A program made the translations under genes and the position numbers. Below, one piece after another: positions 9,440 to 30,357 of a stretch of DNA of 43,411 nucleotides. Numbering within the stretch: position 1 is the first letter of the stretch; each line of letters starts with the position of its first letter. The notes under the pieces were generated by a model. That model saw nothing but the letters and a program-made list of their open reading frames with translations, was not told the origin of the DNA and ran no database searches. Location of the stretch: the NCBI GenBank assembly GCA_050247895.1, contig JBFWTJ010000001.1, positions 1 to 43,411 of the forward strand, in the 5' to 3' direction. The stretch is from Acidimicrobiia bacterium (GTDB taxonomy: Bacteria > Actinomycetota > Acidimicrobiia > Acidimicrobiales > VFJN01).

Positions 9440-9443
9440 AACC

Positions 9444-12323: not shown

Positions 12324-12331
12324 ATCGTTCT

Positions 12332-12344: not shown

Positions 12345-12350
12345 GCCACG

Positions 12351-14117: not shown

Positions 14118-14133
14118 GCCGCCGACCCCGGCT

Positions 14134-14460: not shown

Positions 14461-14500
14461 GGCACCCGTCCTCCTGTCCCGCGCTGTCGGCGCGGTCCGC

Positions 14501-14539: not shown

Positions 14540-14544
14540 GTGCC

Positions 14545-15252: not shown

Positions 15253-15271
15253 GCCCCTCGCCGTCCCACCC

Positions 15272-15856
15272 GTGAGCGCCGACCGGCCCGCCGACCTGGC
15301 CGGCAAGGTGGCCGCCGCGCTCGACCGGCTGGCCCACGCCCGGCGAGCGGAGCGCCAGGCCGTGGCCACCCGCCACGGGCTGACCCCCCTCCAGGCCGAC
15401 CTCCTCGCCGTGCTGCGCGGCGGCCCGCCGCCCGAGCCGCTGGTCGGCGCGCTGGCCGCCGAGGTCGGCGTGACCCAGCCGACGGTGACCGACTCGCTCC
15501 GGGCGCTGGAGGGCAAGGGCCTGGTGCGGCGGCGGCCCGACCCCCGCGACGGCCGCCGGGCGACGGTCGAGCTCACCGTGGCCGGGACGCACCTGGCCGC
15601 CGAGCTGGCCGACACGCCCGACGCCGTCGTCGAGGCCGTGCGGGGCCTCGACCGCGCGCAGCAGGAGGCGGCGCTGGAGGCGCTGCTGGCCCTGATCGCC
15701 CGGCTCGTCGACGTCGGCGCCATCACCGTGGCCCGCACCTGCGCCACCTGCCGCTTCCACCGCTTCGAGCGGGGCGTGCACCGCTGCACGCTGCTCGACG
15801 TCGAGCTGCCACCCGCCGAGCTGCGGGTGGACTGCCCCGAGCACCAGCCGGCCTGA
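15272..15856 (+). CDS. MarR-like wHTH regulator with C-terminal Cys/His-rich tail
   Basis: wHTH region LTPLQADLLAVL...VGALAAEVGVTQPTVTDSLRALEGKGLVRRRPDPRDGRRATVELT. The tail is C-x2-C-x11-C-x15-C with interspersed His (TCATCRFHRFERGVHRCTLLD...VDCPEH). Confidence 0.85.
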   Translation: MSADRPADLAGKVAAALDRLAHARRAERQAVATRHGLTPLQADLLAVLRGGPPPEPLVGALAAEVGVTQPTVTDSLRALEGKGLVRRRPDPRDGRRATVELTVAGTHLAAELADTPDAVVEAVRGLDRAQQEAALEALLALIARLVDVGAITVARTCATCRFHRFERGVHRCTLLDVELPPAELRVDCPEHQPA

Positions 15857-15906
15857 CCCACCCCCGCCGCCGCGGCCGCCGATGGGGCGCGCCGTCGCGG
15901 CCCGGC

Positions 15907-15941
15907 ATATATTTCTAGTTGTGAATAGAGAAACAAGGCGG
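15907..15941 (+). promoter_or_regulatory. AT-rich conserved motif, copy D (overlaps the cupredoxin start)
   Basis: ATATATTTCTAGTTGTGAATAGAGAAACAAGGCGG shares TTCTAG ... TAGAGAAAC ... AAGG with copies A and C. TATATT (15908-15913) sits 7 nt before GTG 15921, which is leaderless-promoter geometry. Confidence 0.4.
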
Positions 15942-16343
15942 CACCTGGTCGGGGCCGCACCGCTCGTCGCCCTCGCCCTGGTCCTGTCGAGCTGCGGCGA
16001 CGACGGGTCCGACGACGGGTCCGTCGGCGGGCGCGACGGCGGAGCCGACCCCGCACCGGCGACCGACGGACCCGTGGACCTCGACGTCGTGGCCCAGGAC
16101 ATCCACTTCGACCGGGACGACTACGCGACCCGACCCGGGACCGTCCGCGTCCGCTACACGAACGAGGGCAGCATCCGCCACACGCTGGTGGTCGAGGACG
16201 TCGACGGGTTCTCGCTCGACGTCACCGGCCACGGCGACGTCGAGCGGGGCACCCTCGAGCTCGAGCCGGGCCGGTACGTCCTGTACTGCGACGTGGCCGG
16301 GCACCGGGCCGCCGGCATGGAAGCCCGCCTGGAGGTGGCGTGA
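15921..16343 (+). CDS. Cupredoxin (type-1 copper) lipoprotein
   Basis: Signal peptide plus lipobox (RRHLVGAAPLVALALVLSSC). Type-1 Cu ligands are H (SIRHTLVV) and C-x4-H-x4-M (YCDVAGHRAAGM). Start is uncertain: GTG 15921 gives an ideal signal peptide, while the track uses ATG 15882. Confidence 0.8.
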   Translation: MNRETRRHLVGAAPLVALALVLSSCGDDGSDDGSVGGRDGGADPAPATDGPVDLDVVAQDIHFDRDDYATRPGTVRVRYTNEGSIRHTLVVEDVDGFSLDVTGHGDVERGTLELEPGRYVLYCDVAGHRAAGMEARLEVA

Positions 16344-16663
16344 CGACGCTCGACCATCCCGATCCCGCGACGCCCTCCGCCGCCGCCCGCTCCCCGCTGA
16401 TCGAGCCCGGCTCACCCGCGGGTCGGTGGGCCTCGATCGGCGCGCTCATCGGCTTCGCCGTCCTGTTCGGCATGGTCGCCGCCCTCGGCCTGGGCCTGGG
16501 CATGGACGCCAAGGGCGCCATCGGCCTGGGCGTGTTCGTGGGCGTCTGGGGCGGGCTCGGCTACGGGTTCATGATGGGCGGGTGCGTCGCCCTGTCGATC
16601 TCCCACGTCCACACCCACGCCGCCGACCCAGCCGGCCGGCCCGACCCTCCCGCCACGCCGTGA
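16340..16663 (+). CDS. Small hypothetical membrane protein (2-3 TM)
   Basis: GTGA overlap with the cupredoxin stop. Gly-rich hydrophobic segments (WASIGALIGFAVLFGMVAALGLGLG; IGLGVFVGVWGGLGYGFMMGGCVAL). Confidence 0.6.
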   Translation: MTTLDHPDPATPSAAARSPLIEPGSPAGRWASIGALIGFAVLFGMVAALGLGLGMDAKGAIGLGVFVGVWGGLGYGFMMGGCVALSISHVHTHAADPAGRPDPPATP

Positions 16664-17097
16664 GCCGGCTGGCCGCGGTGCCCTCCCGGCGGGGCCGGGA
16701 CCTCGACGACCCCACCGAGATCGCCGAGATGGTCCGCCGCTTCTACGCCGACGTGGCCCAGGACGACCTGCTCGGGCCGCTCTTCAACGACGTCGCCCGG
16801 GTCGACTGGTCCGAGCACCTGCCCAAGCTCACCGCCTTCTGGTGCCGGGTGCTGCTGTCGATGCCCGGCTACGAGGGCAACCCCTTCCGGGCCCACCTGC
16901 TGGTCCACGCCCGGCAACCCTTCACCACGGCCCACTTCGAGCGCTGGCTCGACCTGTTCCACGAGACGGTGGACCTGGGCTGGGACGGTCCCGGCGCCGA
17001 GCAGGCCAAGGCCTTCGCCCGCAAGGTGGCCATGGTCCACTCCAAGCAGCTCGTCGGCCACCCCGTCACCTACGCCGACCCCGGGGCCGGTCGATGA
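16660..17097 (+). CDS. Group III truncated haemoglobin
   Basis: 145 aa. MVRRFYADVAQDDLLGPLFNDV.RVDWSEHLPKLTAFWCRVLL..PGYEGNPFRAHL......FTTAHFERWLDLFHETV matches trHb group III as remembered. GTGA overlap with the upstream gene. Confidence 0.85.
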   Translation: MSRLAAVPSRRGRDLDDPTEIAEMVRRFYADVAQDDLLGPLFNDVARVDWSEHLPKLTAFWCRVLLSMPGYEGNPFRAHLLVHARQPFTTAHFERWLDLFHETVDLGWDGPGAEQAKAFARKVAMVHSKQLVGHPVTYADPGAGR

Positions 17098-17531
17098 GGG
17101 TCGACGGCTGGAGCCTGGTCCGCTTCCTCCACGTCACCGCGGCCATGGGCTGGGTCGGCGGCCAGCTCCTGCTCAGCGGCGTGGTCCTGCCCGTGCTGCG
17201 GGCCAACCTGGAGCCGGCCGCCCGCACCCCGCTCGTCCACGCCACGGCCCGGCGCTTCGCCCTGGTCGCCAACGCCGGGCTGCTGCCCGTCCTGCTCGCC
17301 ACCGGCATCGCGCTGGCCTGGCACCGGGGCGTCACCCTGGGCAGCTTCGACGACCCGGGCTACGGCCGCCTGCTCGGGATCAAGCTCACCCTCGTGGTCG
17401 TCTCGATCGTGCTGGCCGCCGGGCACGGCGTGCTGGCCACCCGCAACCCCCGCAGCGCCCGGCCCGTCGCCATGGCCGGCCTGGCCGCCTCCCTCGGCGT
17501 GGTCGTCTTCGCCACCGCCCTGGTCCCCTGA
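17094..17531 (+). CDS. CopD-like / small integral membrane protein (4 TM)
   Basis: ATGA overlap with the globin stop. FLHVTAAMGWVGGQLLLSGVVLPVL and three further TM segments. The family call is tentative. Confidence 0.65.
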   Translation: MRVDGWSLVRFLHVTAAMGWVGGQLLLSGVVLPVLRANLEPAARTPLVHATARRFALVANAGLLPVLLATGIALAWHRGVTLGSFDDPGYGRLLGIKLTLVVVSIVLAAGHGVLATRNPRSARPVAMAGLAASLGVVVFATALVP

Positions 17532-17587: not shown

Positions 17588-19054
17588 GTGCAGCGGCCCG
17601 ACGACGTGTTCGACCGCGAGTCGGAATGGGACGACCTCGCCACGTTCGCCACGCAGGGCGGATCGGGCACCCGGCTCGCCCTGGTGAGGGGACGACGACG
17701 CCAGGGGAAGTCCTACCTCCTGCGCCGGCTGGCCCGAGCCACCGGCGGCTTTTACCACCAGGCCGTCGAGGAAGAGCGGAGCCAGGCACTCGCGGGGTTC
17801 GGTCGTGCGCTGGGTGCCCACCTCGGAGTGCCCGGAGGGCGACTCGCGCTCGACCATTGGGACGACGCGCTCCTCGCCCTCCGCGAGCTGCCGACCGCCG
17901 GCGGTCCGACCGTCGTCGTCCTCGACGAGCTGCCCTACCTCCTCGGCAACTCGCCGGAGCTCCCTTCGGTCATCCAGAGGTTCATCGACGACACGGACGA
18001 TCGGCCGGGTTCCCTGCGGCTCGTCCTGTGCGGCTCGGCGCTGTCGGTCATGGCCCACCTGCTCGAGGGGACCCAGGCGCTGCGCGGTCGTGCTTCGGTC
18101 GACGTGCTGGTGCGCGCCTTCGACTACCGGACGGCAGCTGCGTTCTGGGACATCGCCGACCCCATGACCGCCTTCCTCGTCCACGCCGTCGTCGGTGGGA
18201 CCCCCGGATACCGCGACCTCCTCCCTTCGTCCCCCCCACGACGACCCTCTGACCTCGGACGATGGCTCGGTGCCGGCCCGCTGAACCCGGCGAGCGCCCT
18301 GTTCCGCGAGGACGACTACCTGCTGACAGAGGACCGCTCGCTGTCCGACCGGCAGCTCTACCACTCCGTCGTCGCCGCGATCGCCGGGGGGAGCACGAGC
18401 CAGGGTGCCATCGCCCAGGTGCTGGGACGTGAGCAGCGCGCCGTCCAGCACCCCCTCAGATCCCTGGAGGAGGCGGGCTTCGTCACCGCCACCGACGACG
18501 CGCTCAGGTCGAGGCGGCCCATCTACCGGATCGCCGACCCGATCGTCCGGTTCCACCACGTCGTCACCCGCCGTGACCTCGCACGGTTCGAGGATCGGCG
18601 GACCGCCGAGGCGTGGGAGGACGCCAGGCCCCGCTTTCGAACCCACGTGCTCGGCCCTCACTTCGAGGACCTCGCGCGAGCCTTCACCTTCGCCTACGCA
18701 TCACCGGCCACGGTCGGCGGCAGCGTGGCCTCGGTCGGACCAGCCGTCGTCAACGATCCGACCACACGTCGCCAGCACGAGATCGACGTCGTGGCCCTCG
18801 GGCGCGAACCCGACGGCTCCTCGCGGGTGTTGGCCATCGGTGAAGCGAAGTTCACGACCTCCAAGCGGACCACCGCCGACCTGGATCGGCTGGAGGACGT
18901 GCGTCGCCTCGTGGCGCGCAAGTCGCCGGCGGCCGAGACCGCCCGGTTGCTGCTGTTCGCAGCCAACGGGGTCGACGTGAACCTCGCCCGCGTCGCGAAG
19001 GGCCGACCCGATGTGGAGCTGGTCGACATCCAGCGCCTCTACTTCGGGGAGTAG
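17588..19054 (+). CDS. P-loop ATPase (archaeal-ATPase/AAA-like) + wHTH + DUF234-type PD-(D/E)xK nuclease domain
   Basis: Walker A GRRRQGKS (17690-17713) and Walker B VVVLDELPYL. wHTH-like segment SQGAIAQVLGREQRAVQHPLRSLEEAGFV. C-terminal HEIDVV...AIGEAKF (D400, E419, K421). TAGTAT at 17576-17581 sits 6 nt before GTG 17588, which is leaderless geometry. Confidence 0.85.
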   Translation: MQRPDDVFDRESEWDDLATFATQGGSGTRLALVRGRRRQGKSYLLRRLARATGGFYHQAVEEERSQALAGFGRALGAHLGVPGGRLALDHWDDALLALRELPTAGGPTVVVLDELPYLLGNSPELPSVIQRFIDDTDDRPGSLRLVLCGSALSVMAHLLEGTQALRGRASVDVLVRAFDYRTAAAFWDIADPMTAFLVHAVVGGTPGYRDLLPSSPPRRPSDLGRWLGAGPLNPASALFREDDYLLTEDRSLSDRQLYHSVVAAIAGGSTSQGAIAQVLGREQRAVQHPLRSLEEAGFVTATDDALRSRRPIYRIADPIVRFHHVVTRRDLARFEDRRTAEAWEDARPRFRTHVLGPHFEDLARAFTFAYASPATVGGSVASVGPAVVNDPTTRRQHEIDVVALGREPDGSSRVLAIGEAKFTTSKRTTADLDRLEDVRRLVARKSPAAETARLLLFAANGVDVNLARVAKGRPDVELVDIQRLYFGE

Positions 19055-19081: not shown

Positions 19082-19756
19082 TCAGGCCGGGGTGGCGACC
19101 TTGATCCGGCAGCCGGCCCGGCGGGGCGGGCGGACGACCAGGTCGGTGATGGTCGCCTCGCCGCCGGTCTGCTCGGCGATGCCCTCGGCGATGCCCCGGT
19201 GCAGGTCGCAGACGATCTCGGGCGACGACGCGGCCGGGCCCACGAACGGGCAGCGGTCCAGGACCACCTCGACCCCGGCCCGGGCCGGCGCCACCCGGGG
19301 CTCGAAGCCGAGCCGGCGGGCCACCGCGTCGAGCACCTCCACGGCGTCCGCGCCGCGGCCGTGGTCCGCGGCCAGCCGGCGACCGGCCCGGCGGCCGACC
19401 TCCCGGGGGGTCCCCTCACCGCGGAGGAGCTCGAGCAGCATCATCGACAGGGCCTCGAACGGGCTCGGGCCGCCCCAGCGCTCGGCCGCGCCCGGCATCG
19501 GCCGGTAGCGCAGCCGGGGCCGCCCGGGGCCCGAGGGGGCGTCCTGCTCCTCGACGACCAACCCGGCCTGGCGCAGCTTGGCCAGGTGCTGGCGGATGGC
19601 GTTGTGGTTGAGCCCGAAGTGGTCGGTCAGCTCGGCCACGCCCACCGGGCCCGGCGCGCCACGGACGTAGGCGAACACGGCGTTGCGGGTGGGGTCCCCC
19701 AGGGCCCGGCTCTGCACCAGGATGTCCTGGTCGATGAGGTCGTCGCCTCGGGGCAT
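19082..19756 (-). CDS. ArsR-like wHTH transcriptional regulator with C-terminal Cys-containing sensor-type domain
   Basis: 224 aa from ATG 19756 (RBS AGGAG 6 nt upstream). LGDPTRNAVFAYVRGAPGPVGVAELTDHFGLNHNAIRQHLAKLRQAGLV is the wHTH. The C-terminus carries DRCPF...PEIVCDLHRGIAEGI. The track ORF extends spuriously to 19921. Confidence 0.85.
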   Translation of the reverse strand: MPRGDDLIDQDILVQSRALGDPTRNAVFAYVRGAPGPVGVAELTDHFGLNHNAIRQHLAKLRQAGLVVEEQDAPSGPGRPRLRYRPMPGAAERWGGPSPFEALSMMLLELLRGEGTPREVGRRAGRRLAADHGRGADAVEVLDAVARRLGFEPRVAPARAGVEVVLDRCPFVGPAASSPEIVCDLHRGIAEGIAEQTGGEATITDLVVRPPRRAGCRIKVATPA

Positions 19757-19808
19757 GCGCCGCTCCTGACCGTCGGGCCCGCGACCGCGGAGGCGCTCCG
19801 GGCCGGCA

Positions 19809-19846
19809 GGTAATTCTATCGGCTGCTCGATCAAACAGCCGGGAAG
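19809..19846 (+). promoter_or_regulatory. AT-rich conserved motif, copy F, in the regulator/giant-operon divergent region
   Basis: GGTAATTCTATCGGCTGCTCGATCAAACAGCCGGGAAG matches about 27 of 38 positions of copy B by hand alignment. It lies about 175 nt upstream of GTG 20022. Confidence 0.45.
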
Positions 19847-19896
19847 CCTGCGGCGGGAACGGCCGCCACGGTCCGCGTCGGGCCGACCGCGCGATC

Positions 19897-19908
19897 GGCA
19901 GATCTGCC
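19897..19908. promoter_or_regulatory. Perfect 12-nt palindrome GGCAGATCTGCC in the leader of the giant operon
   Basis: Read directly. It is followed by a TATGTT hexamer (19922-19927). Candidate operator for the adjacent ArsR-like regulator, or an RNA hairpin. Confidence 0.35.
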
Positions 19909-20021
19909 CCTTCGGCTGCACTATGTTGCCGAGCCGTGCGGACGGGCGGGGCCCAGGATGTGGGTTCGTGGGCGACCGACCGCGAGCGCACGTCCGGTCG
20001 GGCAGGTCCTGAGGGCTGACG

Positions 20022-23000
20022 GTGGCCTACGCCCCGCTCTCCGGCCGGCTGTCGAGCCTGCCCCTCGTCCTCTGCGGGCCTCTGCTCCGCCGCGTGACCA
20101 CCGACGCGGTCACCGTCTTCGTGGCGCTGCGCAAGCCGGCCAGCGTCACCCTCACCGTCTCGGCGGTCACCTCGGCCGGCGGCGCCGGCGCGACCCGTTG
20201 CACCGGCACGGCGCCGACCGTCGGGATCGGCGCCAACCTGCACGTGGTCGCCGTCACCGCCACCGCGCCCGGCGCCATCGTGCCCGGGGCCACCTACGTC
20301 TACGACCTCGCACTGACCCCGCAGGGCGAGTCGACCCGCTCCCTGCTCGACGCCGGCGTGGTGGCCGACACCGGGGCCGCGGCCCGCCAGGCCCTGACCT
20401 ACGAGGTGCCCGGCGCCCCGGCCCTGCCCTCGTTCACCGCCCCGCCGCCCGACCCCCGCGGCCTGCGGATCCTGCACGTCTCGTGCCGCAAGCCCCACGG
20501 CCACGGCACCGACGCCCTGCCCACCGTCGACCGCATGATCCGCGACTCGTTCACCGCGACCGGGCCCGACGCCGCGCCCCGGCCCCACCTGCTCGTCCAC
20601 ACCGGCGACCAGATCTACGCCGACGACGTGGCCGATCACCTGCTGTACGTGCTGATCGACGCGGCCGACGCCCTGCTCGGCTGGACCCCCGGCGAGCAGC
20701 TCCCCCTGCCCGGCGGGGCCGCCGCGCCCCGCACCCTGCGCCCCGGGCTGCGGATCCGGACCGCGCTCGAGGGCGGGCTGACCAGCGGGGCGCCCTTCGG
20801 CCGCAAGCCCCCCGACCAGGTCGACGACGACGTCGTGGCCAAGTGGGGCCAGGAGCCCCGCAGCCACCTGCTCGGCTTCGGCGAATTCTGCGCCATGTAC
20901 CTGCACGCGTGGAGCCCGACCCTGTGGCCCCCGGCCATGCCGACCGAGGCCGAGCTCTACCCGGGCGCCACGCCCGAGCAGCTCGAGGCCCACCGCAAGG
21001 CCGTCTCCGACCAGCGCACCCGGGTCGGCTGGGGCTACGGCCCGTTCGTGGCCGACGTCCGCCGGCTGCTGGCCAACGTGCCCTCGCTGATGCAGTTCGA
21101 CGACCACGAGGTGACCGACGACTGGTTCCTCAACCTCGCCTGGCTCAAGCGCGCCCAGGACCCGGCCACCCCCAAGGGCCGGCTGGGCCGGTCCATCGTG
21201 CGCAACGGGATGGCCGCGTTCGCCGTGTTCCAGGGGTGGGGCAACGTCCCCGAGCGGTTCGTCGCCGCCCCCGGCCCGGTCCCGGTGGCCGGCGCCGAGA
21301 TCCTCCGGCTGCTCAACACCTGGCACGGCGACGGCGGCCGCAGCGACAGCGCCACCGGCAGCAACACCCTCGAGCTGCTCGAGAAGCTGCTCGGGCTGCC
21401 CACCGGCTTCGGCATCGACCGGGCCACGCGCGACGCCAACGCCATCGACTGGCACTTCCACCACACCTGGCCCGGCCACCAGCTCGTGGTGCTCGACACC
21501 CGCACGGTCCGCTCGACCCCGGGCGCCGAGGGCGAGCCACCCGCGCTCATCTCCGCCGAGGACCTCGTCGACCAGTTCGCCCAGGTCCCCGTGCCCGGGG
21601 CCGACGACCTCGTCCTGGTGGTGTCCCCCGCGCCGGTGTTCGGGGCCGAGGCCCACGAGAAGCTGGGCAAGACCCGCCAGCACATGGTCGACCCCGAGCA
21701 CTGGTCGCTCCAGGAGGCGGCCTGGGAGCGCCTGCTGGCCCGCGTCGTGACCCGGCGGCCGGCCGACGCGACCGGCGTGCGCCGGTCGCGGACCGTCATC
21801 CTGTCCGGCGACGTCCACTACGCCTCGACGCTGGCCGTGCACTACAAGGGCCGGCCCTACGAGGCCGACGCCACGACCCGGGTCGAGGCGGCCATCGCCC
21901 AGCTCACGTCGAGCGCGTCGAAGAACCAGGACTCCAAGACCATCGGGATCGCCTACGGAGCCAGCGCGGCCATGCCCGCCGCCCACCGCTACGGCTGGAC
22001 CAACCCGGGCGGCGGGCCGTTCCCGGTGACCACCGCGACCGGCACCGAGACCCGCAACGGCTCGCCCGTGGTGGTCGACGTGCCCAACGGCCCCGGGCCG
22101 CTCGCCGAGTGGGACGTCGACATCCTCCCCCAGCGCGACGTGCGCCTCGGCATCTCGCACCTGCTCAGCCTGCCCCCGGCCGGCGGCGGGCTCGCCGGGG
22201 CCGTCGAGGCCGGCAAGTGGGCCGCCGGCGTGGTCGCGACCGAGCTCAGCGGGCGCCGCATCGTGGGGCGCAACAACGTGGGCGACATCCGCTTCCGGTG
22301 GGAGGCGGGCGACGACAAGAAGGTCATGCACCACCTCTGGTACCGGGCCAAGGACGCCGACCCGCTCGCCGCACCGCACACCCTGCACGTGGTGGACCTC
22401 GCCGTCGGCCTGCCCGCGGCGTCGACGGACCCGACCCTGCGCCGGGGCGACCACGACCGCGACGCCGGCGGCATCGCCCGCTACGACGGGGCCGACCGGG
22501 TCGAGCCGGCCCCGGGCAGCGGGCTCGTCGCCCGGCGCCAGGCCCAGCTGGCCCAGCTCGGCTTCTCGCTCGTCGGCCCGGCCGACGGCCTGTTCGACGC
22601 CGAGATGGAGGAGGCCGTCCGCGAGTTCCAGATCGCGGCCGGCAGCTCCCGGGCCGCCCGCTCGACCAGCGGCGCGCCGAGCGACCCGACGACCCACGAA
22701 CCGGTGGTCATCGGCACGGCCGAGCGCTACGCCGGCGCGATCGACGGCCGGATCGACCAGGCCCTGGCCGGGGTGATCGACGGCTGGGTCGCCCGGGGCT
22801 GGGCCAACCCGGTGTGGGCCCGGGCCCAGCAGGGCGCCACGGTGACCGCCACCACGGTCTGGCGCTTCGACGACCCCGTCCCGGCGGGCAGCGAGGTGTC
22901 GATCCGGGACCTGTCCGACCTGTGGCCCCTGCCCGGCGGCCGGGCCGCGGCCGACTACCACCCGGCGGGGCGCTTCCTGGCCACGGCGGGCGGGCCCGTG

Positions 23001-24092
23001 GCCGTGGCCCCGGACCACACCTGGGCCCAGGCCGAGCTGCTGCCCGCCGTGCTCACCGGCACCACGCCGACGGTGGTCCAGCGCTCGACGTTCAAGGTCG
23101 TCCGGGCGGTGAGCGAGCGGGAGTGCGGCGGCTTCCTCGACAGCGTGGCCACCTCGTCCAACGCGCTGCTGGAGGCCGGCACCTTCCACTGGACCTTCGG
23201 CCTGCCCAACGGCGCCCTGCGCGCCCCCGGCGAGCTGGCCGGCTTCGCCGCCTACCTGCGCCACGCCGACCCGCTGATCTTCGACGCCGTGTTCACCCGG
23301 TTCGGGCTCGTCCCGTCCAAGGCCTGGCGCCAGGTCGACCAGTCCCCCACCGGCCGGGCCCTGCTCACCCCCGAGCGCACCTACCGGGCCTGGTGGAGCC
23401 GGCCCCACGACCCCCTCCAGGAGATCGAGGACGGCGCGGTCGAGTCGGACCGGTTCCGGTCCTGGCACTGGGTCCACCGCATGCAGATGGCGGCCCGCAC
23501 CTTCGGCGACTGGCGCCGGGCCGCCTACGACTTCGGCCGCATCCGGGTGCGCGACCTGCTCTCCACGCCCTGGGGCAAGAAGACCGGCGCCGACGGGGTC
23601 CCCGACATCGCCCTGACCGGCGGCGGGACCCGCGTCGCGACGATCGGCGACGTGGTCACCTCCGAGCGGGGCGTGGCCCTGCTGGTGCGCTGGCACGTCT
23701 TCCGCCCGGCCGACCTCGTGAGCGCCAACGCCGCCGCGTCCTTGCTGCGCCAGACCCTGGCCACCGTGGGCAGGCCGGCCGGCGCCCCTTCGAGCTGGCC
23801 CGACAGCTTCGAGGACCAGTTCGTCGCCGCCCTGGCCGCGGCACCGCCGACGGGCATCAACTCGTTCGACGACGTGCTGCGCTGGCCCCGTTGGCAGGCG
23901 AACAACCCGTCCGGGTTCGCCCTGGACCTCGACGCCCTGCTCGCGGCGGCGCCCGGCGCGCCGACCGGCTACGTCGCGCCGACCGACATCTCGCGCACCG
24001 CCGGCCTGCTGTCGGCCCGGCGGGGCTCGTTCCTGCTCGACGCCGCGGGCCTGCCCCCGGCCCCCGACTACGCCCAGGCAGGCCAGCCGTGA
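20022..24092 (+). CDS. Giant-operon gene 1: PhoD-like metallophosphoesterase + peptidoglycan-binding (PG_binding_1-like) module + ~400-aa uncharacterised C-terminal region
   Basis: 1356 aa. PhoD_N-like strand (GPLLRRVTTDAVTVFVAL). Metallophosphatase motifs are HVSC, GDQIYADD (20604), FDDHEVTDDW (21096) and LSGDVHYAS (21804). PG-binding-like segment QLAQLGFSLVGPADGLFDAEMEEAVREFQ (~22524-22645). RBS GAGGG 6 nt before the GTG. Confidence 0.85.
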   Translation: MAYAPLSGRLSSLPLVLCGPLLRRVTTDAVTVFVALRKPASVTLTVSAVTSAGGAGATRCTGTAPTVGIGANLHVVAVTATAPGAIVPGATYVYDLALTPQGESTRSLLDAGVVADTGAAARQALTYEVPGAPALPSFTAPPPDPRGLRILHVSCRKPHGHGTDALPTVDRMIRDSFTATGPDAAPRPHLLVHTGDQIYADDVADHLLYVLIDAADALLGWTPGEQLPLPGGAAAPRTLRPGLRIRTALEGGLTSGAPFGRKPPDQVDDDVVAKWGQEPRSHLLGFGEFCAMYLHAWSPTLWPPAMPTEAELYPGATPEQLEAHRKAVSDQRTRVGWGYGPFVADVRRLLANVPSLMQFDDHEVTDDWFLNLAWLKRAQDPATPKGRLGRSIVRNGMAAFAVFQGWGNVPERFVAAPGPVPVAGAEILRLLNTWHGDGGRSDSATGSNTLELLEKLLGLPTGFGIDRATRDANAIDWHFHHTWPGHQLVVLDTRTVRSTPGAEGEPPALISAEDLVDQFAQVPVPGADDLVLVVSPAPVFGAEAHEKLGKTRQHMVDPEHWSLQEAAWERLLARVVTRRPADATGVRRSRTVILSGDVHYASTLAVHYKGRPYEADATTRVEAAIAQLTSSASKNQDSKTIGIAYGASAAMPAAHRYGWTNPGGGPFPVTTATGTETRNGSPVVVDVPNGPGPLAEWDVDILPQRDVRLGISHLLSLPPAGGGLAGAVEAGKWAAGVVATELSGRRIVGRNNVGDIRFRWEAGDDKKVMHHLWYRAKDADPLAAPHTLHVVDLAVGLPAASTDPTLRRGDHDRDAGGIARYDGADRVEPAPGSGLVARRQAQLAQLGFSLVGPADGLFDAEMEEAVREFQIAAGSSRAARSTSGAPSDPTTHEPVVIGTAERYAGAIDGRIDQALAGVIDGWVARGWANPVWARAQQGATVTATTVWRFDDPVPAGSEVSIRDLSDLWPLPGGRAAADYHPAGRFLATAGGPVAVAPDHTWAQAELLPAVLTGTTPTVVQRSTFKVVRAVSERECGGFLDSVATSSNALLEAGTFHWTFGLPNGALRAPGELAGFAAYLRHADPLIFDAVFTRFGLVPSKAWRQVDQSPTGRALLTPERTYRAWWSRPHDPLQEIEDGAVESDRFRSWHWVHRMQMAARTFGDWRRAAYDFGRIRVRDLLSTPWGKKTGADGVPDIALTGGGTRVATIGDVVTSERGVALLVRWHVFRPADLVSANAAASLLRQTLATVGRPAGAPSSWPDSFEDQFVAALAAAPPTGINSFDDVLRWPRWQANNPSGFALDLDALLAAAPGAPTGYVAPTDISRTAGLLSARRGSFLLDAAGLPPAPDYAQAGQP

Positions 24093-27000
24093 GTGACGCC
24101 GCGACCAACGTCCTCAAGGCCCTGATCGGCGAGCTGGAGGCCTTCTTCGAACCGCTGACCACGGCCATGCAGAGCCGCCACGGCCGGGCCCGCATGTTCG
24201 CCACCATGGGCTGGGACGGCGGAGTGCTCGTCGACGGGGCCGTCGAGGACGCGGTCGAGGCCCTGCAGCAGATCCTCGAGACGGTCATGGACCTGGCCGA
24301 CGGCGAGCTGTCGGACCTCGGGGTCCTGCTCGACGCCATCGAGGCGATCGGCGACCTGATCACCGCCATCGACACGCTGGGCCGGGCCGCGGCGAACGGC
24401 ACGCTGGCCGCCCTGCTCGACCCGACCGTGCTGGGCGAGCTGGCCGAGGACCTGCTGGCCTACCTGGCCTGCACCTACCTGGCCCGCCGCTACCCGGTGG
24501 CCTACATCGGCGCGGTCCTGCTGACCCTGGTCGACCCGGCCGCCCCCGAGCGCAGCCGCCTGGCGCTGCCCTCGGGCCAGGTGGTCCGCCGCCCGGTCAA
24601 GCGCCAGGCCCTGCGCTTCGACCACATCCCCAAGCTCTTCGAGGACCCGGTCGGCCACCTCAAGGCGTTCCACTTCAACGGGGCGGTCGACGCCGCCGGC
24701 GTCACCTACTTCAGCGACCGGGTGCTCGACGAGATCGCCCAGGTCCTGATGGACCACGGGATCGAGGCCTCCTACGGGTTCCCGACCGAGCTGGCCACGG
24801 CCCTGGGCGTCGACCCCGGCACTCCCTTCGTGGAGCGGCTGCTGAGCCTGCTCTTCCGCTTCCCCGCCACCGACGTGGGCGCCGGGGTCGAGGTCGGCGG
24901 CGAGCTGGCCATCTCGTCGGGGCTGCTGGGCTCCGACGAGGGCGGCCCGGCGCTGGTGCTGCTGCCCTCGGGCGAGATCGAGGTGTCCCGGACCTTCGCC
25001 GACTGGGTCGTCGAGCTGGTCCTGGGCGGCACGACCGGCGGGGTGGCGTTCGGTCCCGGCGGCGTCACCTTCGGGAGCGGCTCGACCCCCTCGGGGCGCA
25101 TCGAGCTGGGCGTGTCCAAGGGCGGGGGGAGCACCGCCCCGGCCTTCGTCATCGGGCCCTCGGACGGCTCCCGGGTCGAGCTGGGCACGGTGCGGGCCCG
25201 GGCCGGGGTGGACCTGGCCGCGTCGGGTGCTGCGTTCGACCTCGAGGTCGGCGTCATGTCGGCCCAGATCGTGGTGGCCGCGGGCGACGGCGACGGCTTC
25301 CTCCAGAAGGTCCTGCCCCCCGACGGGTTCCGGGTCCCCTTCGAGCTCGGCGTCGGGTTCAAGTCGCCCGACCGCCTCTACTTCTTCGGCGGGGCCGGCC
25401 TGGAGATCGAGCTGCCGGTCGACATCGACCTGTTCGGCGTCATCAAGATCCCCGTGATCGGCCTGCGTGCGGTGGTGACCCTGCCCGCCGGCCAGCCGCC
25501 GCGGGTGGAGACCGCGGTGACCGCCGACGTCGAGGTGGCCATCGGGCCCTTCTACGCCACCGTCGAGGGCATGGGGATCTCGGCCGACCTGTCGTTCCCG
25601 CCCGGCGGGGGCAACCTGGGCCCGGTCCAGCTCGACTTCGGCTTCGAGCCGCCCCGGGGCATCGGCATGTCCATCAAGGCCGGACCGGTCGACGGCGGGG
25701 GGTACCTGTTCCTGGACTTCGACGCCGGGGAGTACGCCGGCGTCCTGCAGGTGAAGGTGGGGCCGGTCGGCGTCACCGCCATCGGGCTGCTCAACACGAA
25801 GCTGCCCGACGGCAGCGACGGCTTCTCGCTGATGCTGATCATCTGCGCCGACTTCCCGACCATCCAGCTCGGCTACGGGTTCACCCTCAACGGCGCCGGC
25901 GGGGTGCTCGGCATCAACCGGACCGTCAACGTCCCCGCCCTCCAGGACGGCGTGCGCCGGGGTGCGCTCGACTCGATCCTGTTCCCCAAGGACGCGGTCC
26001 AGAACGCCCGGCGGATCATCTCCGACGTCGGGACGATCTACCCGCCGATGGTGGGCCAGTTCGTGGTCGGCCCGATGGTCAAGATCGGCTGGGGCGTGTT
26101 CGTGACCGCCTCCATCGGCGTGATCATCGAGTTCCCCCGGTTCACGATCTCGCTGCTGGGGCTCATCCAGATCGGCCTGCCCGCGCTCGACGCCCCGGTC
26201 GTGCTGCTGCGCCTGGCCGTGGCCGGGATCGTGGACCCGGGCCGGGGCGAGCTGTCCATCGACGCCACCCTGCACGGCTCGTTCGTCACCGTGTTCACCA
26301 TCAGCGGCGACGTGGCCATGCGCCTGCGGTGGAAGGACGACCCGATGTTCGCCCTGGCCGCGGGTGGCTTCCACCCCCGGTTCGACCCGCCGGCGAGCTT
26401 CCCCCAGCTCGAGCGCCTGACGATCGCGCTGGCCGACAGCGACAACCCGCGGATCCGCCTCGAGTCGTACATGGCGGTGACGCCGGCCACCGTGCAGTTC
26501 GGGGCCCGCCTGGAGGCCTACGCCGCGCTGGACCTGGGCGTGATCGGGTTCTTCGAGGTCGAGGCGGGCATGGGCTTCGACACGCTGATCCGGTTCTCGC
26601 CGTTCTCGTTCGAGGTCGACATCTACGGCTACGCGCACCTCAAGCGCAACCGCGAGGTGCTCTTCGGCGTGGACGTGGCGCTGCGCCTGTCGGGCCCGTC
26701 GCCGTGGCGGGCCAAGGGCGTGGCGACGGTCCACTTCTTCGGCGAGCACAAGGTCGAGTTCGAGGTCACCAGCGGCCAACCGGCCCACGAGCCTCCCCCG
26801 CCGGCGATCGACGTGGCCGGGCTGGTGCGCGCCGCGCTGGGCGACCCGCAGGCCTGGGCGTCCCTGCCGCCCACCGACGCGCCGGTCCGCCTGCGCGAGG
26901 TGCCCGTCGACCCGGGCGCGCCGGCGCCGGCCCGGCTCATGGTCCACCCCGCCGCCACGCTCACCGCCCGCCAGTCGGCCGCCCCGCTCGACCGGGACCT

Positions 27001-27544
27001 CCACAAGGTCGGCGAGGCGCCCATCAGCGGGCCGAAGCGGATCACCCTCGACCACGTCCTGGTCGGCCCGGACAACGCTGCGGCGACCCTGGCCGTGGGC
27101 GACAAGGTGACCGACCACTTCGCCCCCAGCCAGTTCTTCCGCCTGTCCGACGACCAGCGCCTGACCGGCCCGTCGTTCGAGCCGTTGCCCTCGGGGGCCC
27201 AGGTCGGCGGGACGGCCGCGGCGTGGGGCCCGTCGGCGACCCTGGCCGACGAGGTCGAGGACATCGTGGTCGACGCCGACGAGCGGCGGGTCTCGGTGGT
27301 GGCCATGCTCCCGGTGTTCGCGCTGGTCGCGTCGAGCGCGCTGGACCGGCACCGCAAGCTGGCCTCCAAGGGCCGGGGCGTGCTGGGCGTGTCGCTGACC
27401 AGCGCGCAGTACGCCGTGGCCGGCGAGCAGGCCGCCGGGGGCGCGCTCGTCGCCGAGGGCCCGGTCTTCGCCACCTGGATCGACGCCACCCTGGCCGGGG
27501 GCGTGCACGCCCTGGTCGTCCCCGCCGCGGAGGCCGCACCGTGA
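24089..27544 (+). CDS. Giant-operon gene 2: large uncharacterised beta-rich protein (resembles, from memory, the DUF6603 family)
   Basis: 1151 aa. The GTG overlaps the gene 1 stop (GTGA). N-terminal acidic helical region, then long Gly/Val-rich beta-like repeats. Distinctive block GGYLFLDFDAGEYAGVLQVKVGPVGVTAIGLLNTKLPDGSDGFSLMLIICADFPTIQLGYGFTLNGAGGVLGINRT. Extreme GC3 bias in this frame. Confidence 0.85.
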   Translation: MSDAATNVLKALIGELEAFFEPLTTAMQSRHGRARMFATMGWDGGVLVDGAVEDAVEALQQILETVMDLADGELSDLGVLLDAIEAIGDLITAIDTLGRAAANGTLAALLDPTVLGELAEDLLAYLACTYLARRYPVAYIGAVLLTLVDPAAPERSRLALPSGQVVRRPVKRQALRFDHIPKLFEDPVGHLKAFHFNGAVDAAGVTYFSDRVLDEIAQVLMDHGIEASYGFPTELATALGVDPGTPFVERLLSLLFRFPATDVGAGVEVGGELAISSGLLGSDEGGPALVLLPSGEIEVSRTFADWVVELVLGGTTGGVAFGPGGVTFGSGSTPSGRIELGVSKGGGSTAPAFVIGPSDGSRVELGTVRARAGVDLAASGAAFDLEVGVMSAQIVVAAGDGDGFLQKVLPPDGFRVPFELGVGFKSPDRLYFFGGAGLEIELPVDIDLFGVIKIPVIGLRAVVTLPAGQPPRVETAVTADVEVAIGPFYATVEGMGISADLSFPPGGGNLGPVQLDFGFEPPRGIGMSIKAGPVDGGGYLFLDFDAGEYAGVLQVKVGPVGVTAIGLLNTKLPDGSDGFSLMLIICADFPTIQLGYGFTLNGAGGVLGINRTVNVPALQDGVRRGALDSILFPKDAVQNARRIISDVGTIYPPMVGQFVVGPMVKIGWGVFVTASIGVIIEFPRFTISLLGLIQIGLPALDAPVVLLRLAVAGIVDPGRGELSIDATLHGSFVTVFTISGDVAMRLRWKDDPMFALAAGGFHPRFDPPASFPQLERLTIALADSDNPRIRLESYMAVTPATVQFGARLEAYAALDLGVIGFFEVEAGMGFDTLIRFSPFSFEVDIYGYAHLKRNREVLFGVDVALRLSGPSPWRAKGVATVHFFGEHKVEFEVTSGQPAHEPPPPAIDVAGLVRAALGDPQAWASLPPTDAPVRLREVPVDPGAPAPARLMVHPAATLTARQSAAPLDRDLHKVGEAPISGPKRITLDHVLVGPDNAAATLAVGDKVTDHFAPSQFFRLSDDQRLTGPSFEPLPSGAQVGGTAAAWGPSATLADEVEDIVVDADERRVSVVAMLPVFALVASSALDRHRKLASKGRGVLGVSLTSAQYAVAGEQAAGGALVAEGPVFATWIDATLAGGVHALVVPAAEAAP

Positions 27545-30357
27545 GCACCACGTTCTCGTCCTGGGTCCGCACCGGGATCGCCGGCACCTCGGGCGGGGCC
27601 ACCCCGCTGCTAGCTCCGGCCACCGACGCGGCCCGGTTGACCACCCGCCTGCGGGCCTCGGTCAACGGCACCCCGGCCGCCGCGGTCGACGTGGCCGTGT
27701 TCGGGCCCGGGGACGTGGCCGGCATCGACCCGGGCCAGATCGTCCGCTCCGACCCCCACCCGGGTGCCGAGGGCTTCGAGACGACCCGCTTCGCCCTGGT
27801 CGAGCTGGCCCGGGCCGACCTGCCCTGGCAGTTCACCCCCCAGGTGGCCAACCCCCGGCTGCGCCCGTGGATCGCGCTGGTCGTGGTCCCCGCGGCGGAG
27901 TGCGAGCTGACCCCCCAGCGGGACCGGTTGCCGGTCCTGACCGTCGACCAGCGCCAGCTCCCGCCCCTCGCGTCGAGCTGGGCCTGGGCCCACGTGCAGG
28001 CCCCTTCGACGTCGGGCGCGCCCGGCCCCGGGGCCCGCAGCCGCCTGGTCTGCCCCCGCCAGCTCCGACCCTTCACCCGCTACCTGGCCGCGGTCGTGCC
28101 GACCTTCGAGGCCGGCCGGCGGACGGGGATGGGCCTGGATCCGGGGGCCGAGCTGGGCGACGCGTGGGGCACCGGCGCGGGCGACGTGGACCTGCCCGTG
28201 TACCACCACTGGTTCTTCGCCACCGGCGAGGCGGGCGACTTCGAGTCCCTGGCCCGGGGGCTGACCGCGCTGCCCCAGGCCCCGGCCGGCCTGGGCGCGG
28301 GGACCCTCGACGTCGGCGCGCCGGGCCCGGCCGGGCTGGCCGCGCCGGGCCGGACCACCCCGCTGCTGGGCCCGGTCGCCGCGCCCGGTGCCGGCTTGGC
28401 ACCGTGGGGGCCGGCCGACCGGACCGCGCTGGCCGCCGAGCTGGTCCCGCCGACCGCGGCCCGGGTCCTGGGCCCGCCGGTCTACGGCGCGCTGGCCTCG
28501 GCGACCGACGTGGCGGCCGCCATCCCCACCACGGGGACGCGGCGCTGGGTGGGCCAGCTCAACCTGCACCCGGCCCAGCGGGCCGCGGCGGGCCTGGGCG
28601 CCACGGTGGTCCGCCGCCGCCAGCACGACTTCGTCCAGGAGGCCTGGGAGCAGGCCGGGCAGGTCCTGGAGGCCAACCGGCTGCTCAACCAGGGCCGGCT
28701 GGGCCGCCGGGTGAGCCTGGGCCTGGAGCGCCGGCACGTGGCGCCGCGGATCCCCGTCGACCTGCTCCAGCTCGCCTCACCGCTGCTGCGCCGGGTCCCC
28801 CACCGCACCCTGCCGGTGACCCTGGCCGCCGACCTGCGCCGGACCATGCTCCCGCCCAACCTGCTCGGCCCGGCGTTCCGCCGCCTGGCCCGGCCGACCG
28901 GCCCGATCGCCCGGCGCGGGCTCGACGCGGTCCGGCGCGAGCGGCTGGTGACCGAGGTCAACGCCGGGACCCTGGTCCCCGACCGGTCCCTCGTGTCCCG
29001 GCCCGGCGGACTGCTCACCATCGGCGGGCTCGTCGACGTGCTGGAGGCGGCCCGGCAGAGCTGGCGCCTGGACCAGCCCGTCGTCTTCACGCCCCGCTCG
29101 CTGGTCGCGCCCGCCCCGGCCCCGGCGGCGCCGCTGACCCGGGGCGGCCGGGCGGTCCGGGCCACCGGCGGGGGCGACGCCGGTGGCGAGGTGAAGGTCT
29201 CGGCCTACGCGATCCGCGAGGGGACCAGCATCCGGGTGACCGACCGGAACCTGGTCGTGGCCGGCTCGCTGACCATCCACCTCGACGACACGATGCAGGT
29301 GCCGCCCAAGGCCATCCTCCAGCTGCTCGATCCCGAGAAGCTCACCGCGGCCCACCTGTCCAAGATGCAGGGGATGGTCCACCTGCCCTTCGACGGCAAG
29401 GTCCTGGAGATCACCGAGTCCGTGCGCGCCGGCCTGCTCGGGCTGATCGGCGCGGCCCCCACGGTGCCGCCCAAGCCGGCCGCCGCCCTCCAGGAGCTGG
29501 CCGACACCGTGCGGCTGGCCGTCTCCCCCGCCGTCGCGGTGCGCGACGTGGTGCTGTCCACCGTGAACCGGCCCCTCGCGGCGGTCGACCCGTTGGAGCC
29601 GGTCATGGTCGCCCCGTCGATCGACGAGGCGCTGTGGGACGACCTGGTCGAGGTGTCGGGCGACCTGTTCCTTCCCGGGGCCGACCTCCTCGAGCGCGAG
29701 CACGCCACGATCCTGGCCACCAACCCCGGCTTCGTGGCCGCCTTCATGGCCGGGGCCAACGAGGAGATGATGCGCGAGCTGCGCTGGCGGGGCTACCCGA
29801 CCGACGGGCGGGGCACGGTCTTCCGGCGGTTCTGGGACCGCTACGACGCCCAGGGCGCACCGCTGCCCGACCTGCGGGCCGACGTCCACGCCTGGCGCAA
29901 CGCCCTGGGCGACGACCTGGCCGAGCCGTCGGGCGAGCTGGTCCTGGTCGTGCGCAGCGAGCTGTTCCGCCGCTACCCGGGGACCCTGGTCACCGCGGTG
30001 CGGGCCCTGCCCGGCACGCCCCGCCGGCCCGACCACGCCAGCGCCCGACCCCCCTCGTTCCACGGCAACCTGCCCCGCGGCGCCGCCTTCTTCGGCTTCC
30101 CCATCCCCCTCGAGGAAGCGGTGGGCGAGCCCGGCAACGCGGCGAAGCCGGGATGGTTCATCGTGTTCCACCAGCCGCCGACCGACCTGGGCTTCGGCCT
30201 CGACGACCCCACGCCCGAGGCCCCGGGCGAGCCGCCGACCTGGCTCGACCCGACCGCCCTGGGGGCCGACGCCGCCGCGGTGGCCGTGGCCACGTCCCAG
30301 CTCCCGATCCGCCTGGCCGTCCACGCCAGCGACCTCGCCGGCCTGGCGGTGCCGTGA
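27541..30357 (+). CDS. Giant-operon gene 3: uncharacterised 938-aa protein
   Basis: GTGA overlap with the gene 2 stop. Protein-like, non-repetitive translation (TFSSWVRTG..., ADLPWQFTP, RPWIALVVVP, SSWAWAHVQ). No domain recognised. Confidence 0.8.
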   Translation: MSTTFSSWVRTGIAGTSGGATPLLAPATDAARLTTRLRASVNGTPAAAVDVAVFGPGDVAGIDPGQIVRSDPHPGAEGFETTRFALVELARADLPWQFTPQVANPRLRPWIALVVVPAAECELTPQRDRLPVLTVDQRQLPPLASSWAWAHVQAPSTSGAPGPGARSRLVCPRQLRPFTRYLAAVVPTFEAGRRTGMGLDPGAELGDAWGTGAGDVDLPVYHHWFFATGEAGDFESLARGLTALPQAPAGLGAGTLDVGAPGPAGLAAPGRTTPLLGPVAAPGAGLAPWGPADRTALAAELVPPTAARVLGPPVYGALASATDVAAAIPTTGTRRWVGQLNLHPAQRAAAGLGATVVRRRQHDFVQEAWEQAGQVLEANRLLNQGRLGRRVSLGLERRHVAPRIPVDLLQLASPLLRRVPHRTLPVTLAADLRRTMLPPNLLGPAFRRLARPTGPIARRGLDAVRRERLVTEVNAGTLVPDRSLVSRPGGLLTIGGLVDVLEAARQSWRLDQPVVFTPRSLVAPAPAPAAPLTRGGRAVRATGGGDAGGEVKVSAYAIREGTSIRVTDRNLVVAGSLTIHLDDTMQVPPKAILQLLDPEKLTAAHLSKMQGMVHLPFDGKVLEITESVRAGLLGLIGAAPTVPPKPAAALQELADTVRLAVSPAVAVRDVVLSTVNRPLAAVDPLEPVMVAPSIDEALWDDLVEVSGDLFLPGADLLEREHATILATNPGFVAAFMAGANEEMMRELRWRGYPTDGRGTVFRRFWDRYDAQGAPLPDLRADVHAWRNALGDDLAEPSGELVLVVRSELFRRYPGTLVTAVRALPGTPRRPDHASARPPSFHGNLPRGAAFFGFPIPLEEAVGEPGNAAKPGWFIVFHQPPTDLGFGLDDPTPEAPGEPPTWLDPTALGADAAAVAVATSQLPIRLAVHASDLAGLAVP

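Follow-up and report, generated by a model that had tools for sequence, protein, structure and literature searches.

The window analysed here, a stretch of 43,411 nucleotides (nt) from an Acidimicrobiia bacterium (GenBank assembly GCA_050247895.1, contig JBFWTJ010000001.1), carries a five-gene unit (20022-36958). Its first gene, gene 1 (20022-24092, + strand, GTG start at 20022), encodes a protein of 1356 amino acids (aa) made of a PhoD-like domain, a PG_binding_1 domain and an endolysin-like cassette. Our analysis suggests that gene 1 could encode the envelope-acting enzyme subunit of an undescribed five-protein system rather than a phosphate-scavenging PhoD, a reading to which we give a probability of about 0.45. 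As a protein, the gene 1 product joins known kinds in a new way, namely a PhoD-like enzyme and an endolysin-like module; the operon itself may be something new.

All five genes are on the + strand, with GTGA-type overlaps at all four junctions, and gene 1 is translationally coupled to genes 2-5. Gene 2 (24089-27544, 1151 aa) matches DUF6603 (E 2e-132) and its GTG overlaps the stop codon of gene 1 (GTGA at 24089-24092). Genes 3 (27541-30357, 938 aa), 4 (30354-35327, 1657 aa) and 5 (35324-36958, 544 aa) are without known domain; genes 3 and 5 share a GTGA with genes 2 and 4, respectively, and the start of gene 4 overlaps the stop of gene 3. Besides DUF6603, genes 2-5 have no match in Pfam, and none in NCBIfam, PADLOC or PHROGs. 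The whole set of genes 1-5 gave no informative match in NCBIfam, no match at E<=0.1 among the 5,027 models of PADLOC-DB v2 and, in PHROGs v4, only weak endolysin matches (E 0.006-0.02), all within the PG_binding_1 part of gene 1. When profiles of genes 2, 3 and 5 were run against the PDB, nothing was returned. Furthermore, genes 2-5 have no nucleoside triphosphatase (NTPase), nuclease or zinc motif, no paralogy among them and no internal repeats, and no C-terminal docking tail is common to the classes of gene 1. We found no publication on DUF6603, DUF7800, PF20248 or PF25077, nothing relevant on DUF3892 and the PhoD context, and no publication describing the five-gene operon.

The five-gene operon is conserved in at least ten bacterial phyla. 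The gene 1 family counts more than 1,400 proteins and, in a distribution scan with one genome per species, relatives were found in at least 501 species-level genomes belonging to Cyanobacteria, Actinomycetota, Acidobacteriota, Bacteroidota, Alpha-, Beta- and Gammaproteobacteria, Chloroflexota, Nitrospira, Myxococcota, Gemmatimonadota and Desulfobacterota. The same gene set lies downstream of gene 1 relatives in Humibacillus (L001), Archangium (L004), a Logan contig (L005), Micromonospora (L006), an ENA genome (L009) and a metagenome-assembled genome (MAG) of Pyrinomonadaceae (L010). When genes 2-5 were searched by tblastn on the 80 best loci, genes 2-3-4 were found directly downstream of gene 1 in about half of them (approximately 40 of the 80). 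Moreover, three loci show a permuted order: g3-g4-g5-g1-g2 in Leptolyngbya PCC 7375 (L028) and in a Cytophagales MAG (L063), and g4-g5-g3-g1 in a Lunatimonas MAG (L090). Since the gene order is cyclically permuted in these loci, the five genes can be viewed as one selected unit and not as a chance neighbourhood.

Other relatives consist of a solo core of about 820 aa. They are found in heterocystous cyanobacteria, with Nostocales (L016-L040) and Chlorogloeopsis (L002 and L003), and in Ktedonobacteria (L048, L062 and L068), with no genes 2-5 within 10 kb. These solo copies keep all the ligand motifs without genes 2-5 nearby and, therefore, the core enzyme also has a stand-alone role. A relative of gene 1 was found on one IMG/VR contig only, and a viral origin of the family was rejected on this ground.

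Several observations concern the third and fourth genes of the set. In Humibacillus, Archangium and Micromonospora (L001, L004, L006), the gene downstream of the DUF6603 gene encodes 1,690-1,800 aa versus 938 aa here, and these longer third genes have faint or weak FG-GAP and DUF3892 matches. The gene 4 family has more than 1,160 members, almost all of them annotated as 'hypothetical'; FG-GAP_3 is present in some gene 4 relatives and Glyco_hydro_57 in one. A search with gene 4 (30354-35327) retrieved no entry at 100% identity (best 54%), whereas gene 1 was found at 100%, and gene 4 may thus be missing or modelled differently in public annotation.

The C-terminus is the variable part of the gene 1 family. 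Some relatives consist of the core alone (770-930 aa). Others, of about 1,390-1,560 aa, join the core to the cassette found here, as in Micromonospora, Streptomyces, Humibacillus, Actinomadura, Sinosporangium and Actinokineospora and in this Acidimicrobiia genome. Still others carry Peptidase_C92/NlpC_P60 (P0042), an Ig-like FlgD_ig domain (P0065), TIG (P0082) or an extension of about 800 aa without assigned family (P0018 and P0071). Among the 80 genome loci, only operon-type copies are extended and every solo copy is short. Eight of these loci carry the cassette, all of operon type and all from Actinomycetota; one longer form is found in Conexibacter, likewise of Actinomycetota, and four further extended copies, of about 930-1,010 aa, in Acidobacteriota and Bacteroidota. 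The fusion is a standard actinobacterial architecture (Micromonospora, Streptomyces, Humibacillus, Actinomadura) and not a one-off, the wall cassette is an optional add-on to a core enzyme of about 800 aa, and the operon-type enzyme has thus gained wall-directed modules more than once. Among the genomes sampled, the largest of these extensions, the cassette being one of them, are limited to bacteria with a thick exposed wall. It is mainly because wall-directed modules recur at this C-terminus that we place the action of the system at the envelope.

In gene 1, the cassette (aa ~806-1350) travels as a single block of about 550 aa according to BLAST and comprises three parts. The helix pair that the first-pass annotation had taken for a peptidoglycan-binding module (aa 835-875, nt 22524-22646) is indeed of PG_binding_1 fold: PF01471 matches aa 839-873 (22536-22640, + strand) with E 2.6e-7 and 31.2 bits for a cut-off of 23, the structural model places helices at 835-845 and 860-873, and the family profile matches the peptidoglycan-binding domains of SleB, of an endolysin and of an L,D-transpeptidase in the PDB (E 0.002-0.02). 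It is followed by a small beta-rich linker domain (22650-23021, + strand, aa ~877-1000), which travels with the cassette and is modelled by AlphaFold2 (AF2) with a predicted local distance difference test score (pLDDT) of about 90, and then by an alpha-rich C-terminal domain (23064-23951, + strand, aa ~1015-1310) that has no Pfam family and is a candidate peptidoglycan glycosidase. These three parts are seen in the AF2 model of aa 801-1356, which has high confidence (pLDDT 89, predicted template modelling score (pTM) 0.91). The C-terminus, previously left without identity, forms a conserved domain of its own, about 480 aa long.

Residues conserved in the alpha-rich domain are E1032 (nt 23115-23117), E1034, D1040 (nt 23139-23141), W1057, W1148-H1149 and S1214-E1215 (nt 23661-23666), and the string AVSERECGGFLD...FHWTFGL at aa 1029-1061 is kept in homologues. 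In the model, E1032/E1034 lie at the end of the first long helix, after which come short strands with D1040. E1032 and D1040 are invariant in 36 fusion proteins, all actinobacterial; D1040 and E1215 remain invariant when phage proteins are included. The domain matches no Pfam, PHROG or PDB family. Foldseek found nothing significant in the PDB, the top match being the GH46 chitosanase 4qwp_A (E 5.1, TM-scores 0.23/0.47), and a search of predicted viral structures (BFVD) gave a 'Chitosanase' at E 3.8 and A0MN73 at probability 0.72, neither of them significant. The same BFVD search gave one strong match, A0A2I7QP03 (E 2.6e-9), identified by tblastn as a 447-aa protein of Vibrio phage 1.031.O. Aligned pairwise with gene 1 by BLASTP, the phage protein covers aa 1023-1232 at E 2e-10. 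Vibrio phage 150E35-1 has a homologue of it, which carries the annotation of a LysM peptidoglycan-binding protein and is encoded just downstream of a protein with a transmembrane helix and upstream of tail genes.

Furthermore, when all 1.84 billion representatives were scanned with HMMER, the alpha-rich domain was detected in 1,014 clusters, with E<=1e-30 for 370 of these. It appears as the C-terminus of proteins of 450-1,000 aa, usually behind PG_binding_1 and once behind a VanY D-Ala-D-Ala carboxypeptidase domain (P0273), and it is also the tail of PhoD-like proteins of about 1,450 aa. In proteins of 3,500-4,250 aa, two tandem copies of the entire cassette make up the N-terminal part (P0270, P0271, P0304, P0323, P0329, P0338, P0364, P0366 and P0373), and the remaining residues of these giant proteins, about 3,000, have no Pfam family and no match to genes 1-5. 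A crude test revealed no obvious signal peptide in 137 cassette representatives. The cassette is laid out like a modular phage endolysin, most likely binds and cuts peptidoglycan and is probably a new peptidoglycan hydrolase, and we infer that the alpha-rich domain is a glycosidase.

The first-pass annotation had also noted, as a weak impression, that this C-terminus faintly resembles the phage-type N-acetylmuramidases of DUF3380. Membership of that family failed in Pfam, hhalign and Foldseek: PF11860 has no match at E<=10 for aa 877-1356 or homologues, the DUF3380 endolysin AP3gp15 gives an hhalign probability of 3% over 14 aligned columns and a BLASTP E of 1.2, and its structure (5NM7) was not returned by Foldseek from the PDB. 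What stood is a motif of 14 residues near the catalytic Glu; homology to the family was not demonstrated. The hhalign columns pair FKVVRAVSEvEc-G with LAAVRAVNEVESKG of AP3gp15 around Glu101, so that VRAVSERECGG of gene 1 aligns with VRAVNEVESKG. In the SERE of gene 1 (E1032, E1034), it is E1034 that aligns with Glu101 but it is not kept in all relatives, while E1032 is. Replacement of Glu101 by Ala removes 99.4% of the activity of AP3gp15 (PMC5674055). The impression therefore reflects a real local resemblance around a catalytic Glu, and context supports the more general notion that a peptidoglycan-binding domain is here followed by an endolysin-like catalytic domain. Kinship with SLT/GH23 was also rejected, the C-terminal profile and the profile of the class of about 1,600 aa both giving hhalign probabilities below 1% with the catalytic domain of E. 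coli Slt70; the latter profile found nothing in the PDB. In this class of gene 1 relatives (P0018, P0031, P0071, P0079 and others), the last ~250 residues carry HESG ... YGLGQLD ... RRYNGG, which by eye look like the ES / GLMQ / AYNxG of GH23, but neither hhalign nor Pfam confirmed the likeness.

The other half of the protein is its PhoD-like core. An N-terminal beta-sandwich (20058-20321, + strand, aa ~13-100), which is the counterpart of the N-terminal domain of PhoD, contains the invariant strand LPLVLxGPxLRRV; it matches DUF7800 with E 0.0015, which falls short of the Pfam cut-off, and its strands within aa 16-100 have a pLDDT above 93 in the AF2 model. The metallophosphoesterase core that follows (20430-22421, + strand, aa ~137-800) is of PhoD/purple-acid-phosphatase type; it contains large insertions of helices (aa ~205-460), and its C-terminal part is rich in beta structure. 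Pfam PhoD (PF09423) matches gene 1 in two stretches (E 1.7e-10, 41 bits for a cut-off of 27), the best one, aa 327-369, including the FDDHE motif, and it is also above cut-off in the homologues tested. The AF2 model of aa 1-800, built on 39 relatives, has a pLDDT of 88 and a pTM of 0.92, and Foldseek retrieved B. subtilis PhoD (2yeq_A) as its top PDB match (E 1.6e-12, probability 1.00), followed by the purple acid phosphatase 3zk4 (E 3.6e-7). The TM-scores with 2yeq_A are modest (0.33/0.48) because the core of gene 1 is larger than PhoD by about 280 residues, mostly helical insertions. Sequence searches of the PDB with the two halves of gene 1 found nothing significant and did not reach the canonical PhoD structures; the family profile of the core found a PhoD-type phosphatase only below threshold, and the DDHE and GDxH motifs aligned weakly to 9uya, an 'alkaline phosphatase, secreted'.

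Conservation of the motif residues was scored in the alignment of the 39 relatives (36-48% identity). The three motifs reported earlier are exactly where they had been placed. GDQIYADD (20604-20627, + strand, aa 195-202) provides the GDxxY metal-ligand motif (Asp, Tyr) and two invariant Asp, with G195, D196, Q197, I198, Y199, D201 and D202 invariant; in FDDHE (21096-21110, + strand, aa 359-363), D360, D361 and H362 are invariant, as are D366 and D367 nearby; in SGDVH (21804-21818, + strand, aa 595-599), G596, D597 and H599 are invariant. In addition, Cys155, in an S-C-R-K motif (20484-20486, + strand), is invariant. In the PhoD structure from B. subtilis, a Fe3+ is bound by Cys (Cys-180) and Tyr and two Ca2+ are bound almost wholly by Asp residues, and the PhoD family splits into Cys-type and Asp-type subfamilies (PMC4223295). 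The invariant C155, D196, Y199, D201, D202, D360, D361, H362, D597 and H599 of gene 1 fit these Cys/Tyr-Fe and Asp-rich Ca sites, and the ligand pattern is of the Cys type. Judged from motif order and not from superposition, Cys155 would be the counterpart of the Fe3+ ligand Cys-180, and the same basis underlies any assignment of single residues to single PhoD metals. C155, GDxxY, DDHE and GDxH are all present, and the earlier claim of an intact PhoD-like phosphoesterase is borne out by the Pfam match above cut-off, the top structural match and the complete ligand motifs. The phosphoesterase site is thus apparently intact, and the core is predicted to hydrolyse a phosphoester or phosphodiester bond.

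Although PhoD-like, gene 1 lacks an export signal, as had been noticed. The PhoD family is described as extra-cytoplasmic (PMC4223295), and gene 1 departs from this description in having no Tat signal. The N-terminus LPLVLCGPLLRRV is a family-conserved beta-strand of the first domain (pLDDT 93-98 for residues 16-25), in which P14, G19, P20 and R23 are invariant, and the structured, conserved nature of this strand leaves no Sec or twin-arginine (Tat) leader. The 'RR' at R23-R24 was considered as a Tat leader and rejected since the next segment is charged (D28) and structured. An in-frame TGA at 20010-20012, three codons upstream of the start, bars any extension, so the N-terminus cannot be longer and cannot hide a signal peptide. 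Of the 120 relatives inspected, nearly all start 10-15 residues ahead of the conserved strand; no recognisable signal peptide was seen among them, a few longer N-terminal leaders not having been examined. Hence, within these 120 relatives, the absence of signal holds across the whole family. No convincing transmembrane segment was found by hydropathy in genes 1-5, nor was any signal peptide seen in the five proteins.

The reading frame of gene 1 is well defined. Across 20200-23800, the guanine plus cytosine (GC) content is 0.99 at codon position 3 and about 0.55 at position 2, so the frame of 20022 is the coding frame and the gene is on the + strand. The GC content of the window is 71-80% and long open reading frames (ORFs) occur in several frames; those overlapping gene 1 in other frames are by-products of a GC content of about 75%. 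Codon-position GC and the exact coordinates confirm that the PhoD-like phosphoesterase, the peptidoglycan-binding module and the C-terminus belong to one ORF (20022-24092). Beyond the in-frame TGA, the first start codon is GTG 20022, with GAGGG, a likely ribosome-binding site, 7 nt upstream. The NCBI model (P0001), named 'peptidoglycan-binding protein', has 1332 aa and starts 24 codons later; it leaves out 20022-20093 and thereby loses the family-conserved N-terminal strand LPLVLCGPLLRR. Since homologues keep the residues upstream of the P0001 start (…RL..LPLVLCGPxLRRV), GTG 20022 is the better start.

Taken together, these data lead us to propose the following mechanism. The five proteins, which lack signal peptides, would be produced jointly and assembled in the cytoplasm. 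Both this assembly and the action on the envelope are inferred from the fact that none of the five has a signal peptide. Gene 1 would supply the catalysis for the complex: its PhoD-like domain would cut an envelope component joined through phosphodiester bonds, for example a wall glycopolymer, a teichoic-type linkage or a phospholipid, and its cassette would open the thick actinobacterial wall by binding, and probably cutting, peptidoglycan. The opened or remodelled envelope would then allow the signal-less complex to leave the producer or to attack another cell. A bolder version, in which genes 1-5 are an undescribed machine for envelope release or attack and the cassette is a new hydrolase family shared with phages and giant proteins, is tentative and somewhat unlikely. 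The data show the gene structure, the domain identities, the conserved motif residues, the lack of signals and the conservation of the operon; catalytic activity, substrate, the assembly of all five proteins and the envelope target are proposals. Several points weigh against an envelope-acting subunit: genes 2-5 have no informative database match; a signal-less system could equally act wholly in the cytoplasm; the solo copies of Nostocales and Ktedonobacteria show that the core can work without genes 2-5; no holin-like or other export gene is conserved beside the operon in the loci examined; no glycosidase of solved structure matches the alpha-rich domain significantly, which makes the enzymatic nature of this domain a conjecture; and E1032 is out of register in the phage homologues.

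Other explanations account for part of these data. In a reading that builds on the first-pass annotation, gene 1 would be a stand-alone, wall-anchored PhoD-type phosphodiesterase that reaches the wall and would release phosphate from teichoic acids, phospholipid or extracellular DNA, in the manner of B. subtilis PhoD or the phospholipase D of S. chromofuscus. The intact fold and ligand motifs and the presence of PG_binding_1 agree with this, and PhoD has been proposed to act on wall teichoic acid, a cell-wall-binding role being discussed for the cap domains of related enzymes (PMC4223295). However, a Tat or Sec signal is impossible in gene 1 and none was seen among the 120 relatives inspected, the gene is coupled to four large signal-less genes in a linkage kept across phyla, the core of 800 aa has large insertions and sequence searches with it miss the canonical PhoD structures, and the genes around it serve oxidative stress and transport, none belonging to the phosphate regulon. 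We consider this view quite improbable and a phosphate-scavenging role like that of canonical PhoD unlikely in the operon context. The same lack of signals in all five proteins could instead point to a cytoplasmic conflict system, anti-phage or acting by abortive infection or programmed death. Gene 1 would be the effector and, once activated, would break down nucleic acid or a nucleotide through its PhoD-like domain and lyse the cell from inside through its wall cassette, which has no signal, as in phage endolysins. The patchy spread over more than 10 phyla and the permuted gene order, which suggest horizontal transfer, and the swappable, effector-like C-terminus would fit such a system. Yet none of the 5,027 PADLOC models matches, genes 2-5 lack NTPase and nuclease motifs, none of the loci examined is a defence island, a relative is found on only one IMG/VR contig, and the accessory domains of the relatives (Ig-like, FG-GAP, PG-binding) are typical of extracytoplasmic proteins. 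We therefore regard a conflict system as unlikely.

A further alternative concerns the cassette alone and is compatible with the envelope-acting account: the alpha-rich domain might be non-enzymatic and, together with PG_binding_1, merely tether the enzyme or the complex to peptidoglycan. It resembles no solved hydrolase significantly and has no Pfam or PHROG family, the phage homologues have no E1032 in register, and the tandem N-terminal duplication in the giant proteins of 3.5-4.2k aa is what anchoring modules often show. By contrast, D1040 and E1215 are invariant in bacteria and phage and E1032 in the 36 fusion proteins. A Glu at the end of a helix followed by an Asp in a beta region is the classic lysozyme arrangement, and it is the one found here. 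Moreover, in other relatives the position of the cassette is taken by a bona fide hydrolase family (C92/NlpC_P60), and the co-occurrence of the alpha-rich domain with VanY recalls multi-catalytic lysins. A pure anchor seems to us rather improbable.

These results matter in several respects. PhoD is usually treated as a Tat-exported phosphate scavenger; the gene 1 family is a large sister family in which no export signal was seen and which, in about half of the cases examined, is tied to an operon with four very large proteins. If the five proteins form one assembly, this would be a widespread piece of bacterial cell biology. The system occurs in culturable and tractable genera, for instance Micromonospora, Streptomyces, Caulobacter, Sphingomonas, Variovorax, Chitinophaga and Archangium. 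Furthermore, the cassette is a candidate new peptidoglycan-hydrolase family of about 1,000 clusters, including phage members, and is relevant to endolysin discovery. The lineage-specific add-ons (cassette, NlpC/P60-type amidase, Ig-like domains) offer a testable clue to the site of action.

The genes around the operon are ordinary chromosomal genes (KatG, peroxiredoxin, globins, CLC channel, ABC exporters) and the neighbourhood is neither a prophage nor a defence island. The left part of the window (1-17500) is a cluster of redox and oxidative-stress genes. These include a molybdopterin oxidoreductase (73-2190), a catalase-peroxidase (2945-5203, - strand), a DUF2249 protein, an Fe-S assembly protein, a 1-Cys peroxiredoxin (9426-10076), a CLC channel with CBS domains (12324-14117) and, at 14620-17531, a protoglobin, a MarR regulator, a truncated globin and CopD. 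A 488-aa protein (17588-19054) with archaeal-type ATPase_2, winged-helix and weak DUF234 matches lies upstream of a divergent ArsR-type helix-turn-helix gene (19082-19816, - strand); the former was not found beside the operon elsewhere and the latter is not conserved beside it in other genomes. The 205-bp gap between the ArsR-type gene and gene 1 (19817-20021) contains three palindromes (19820-19841, 19882-19899 and 19896-19909), including the perfect 12-mer GGCAGATCTGCC, that could be operators. The GC content at third codon positions is 0.98-0.99 across the operon (20000-37000) versus 0.83-0.92 in the convergent ABC-exporter genes (37000-43411), and overall GC drops from about 0.77 to about 0.71 at the right flank of the operon; codon usage therefore differs between the operon and this flank. 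Rfam found nothing over the whole window, no terminator or promoter consensus was found after gene 5, and no phosphate-regulon gene is visible near gene 1, whose neighbours are oxidative-stress and transport genes.

Compared with known systems, gene 1 is closest to the PhoD family (B. subtilis PhoD, 2YEQ; S. chromofuscus phospholipase D; PF09423), with which it shares the order of a beta-sandwich at the N-terminus and then a metallophosphatase sandwich, as well as the Fe ligand motif of Cys type, GDxxY, DDHE, GDxH and many invariant Asp suited to Ca2+ sites. It differs from this family by the absence of a Tat signal, by a core of about 800 aa (versus about 520 aa) with long helical insertions, by its fusion to a wall cassette and by its location in a five-gene operon with no visible link to the phosphate regulon. 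Purple acid phosphatases (lupin PPD1, 3ZK4), the second-best structural match, have the same Tyr-containing GDxxY, but gene 1 has Cys and not Asp at the first ligand and DDHE and not GNHE, both being PhoD-type features.

The five-gene set can also be compared with virion- or secretion-associated wall hydrolases and with holin/endolysin (type 10) release, in which a large signal-less protein set comes with its own peptidoglycan-cleaving module, as predicted here. A review is said to cover the concept of non-lytic, holin-dependent export. However, genes for a holin, spanin, sheath, tube or ATPase are neither present nor conserved near the operon and genes 1-5 have no homology to known secretion or tail components, so this is an analogy only. 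Finally, the cassette resembles the modular endolysins of phages of Gram-negative bacteria, such as AP3gp15 of a Burkholderia phage: PG_binding_1 precedes an alpha-rich domain, there is no signal peptide, the short motif VRAVxExE.xG around the catalytic Glu is shared, and cassette homologues in phage genomes adjoin a protein with a transmembrane helix. In contrast to AP3gp15, its catalytic-like domain comprises about 300 aa, with an additional beta domain in front of it, and the cassette is the tail of a 1356-aa protein instead of a free lysin.

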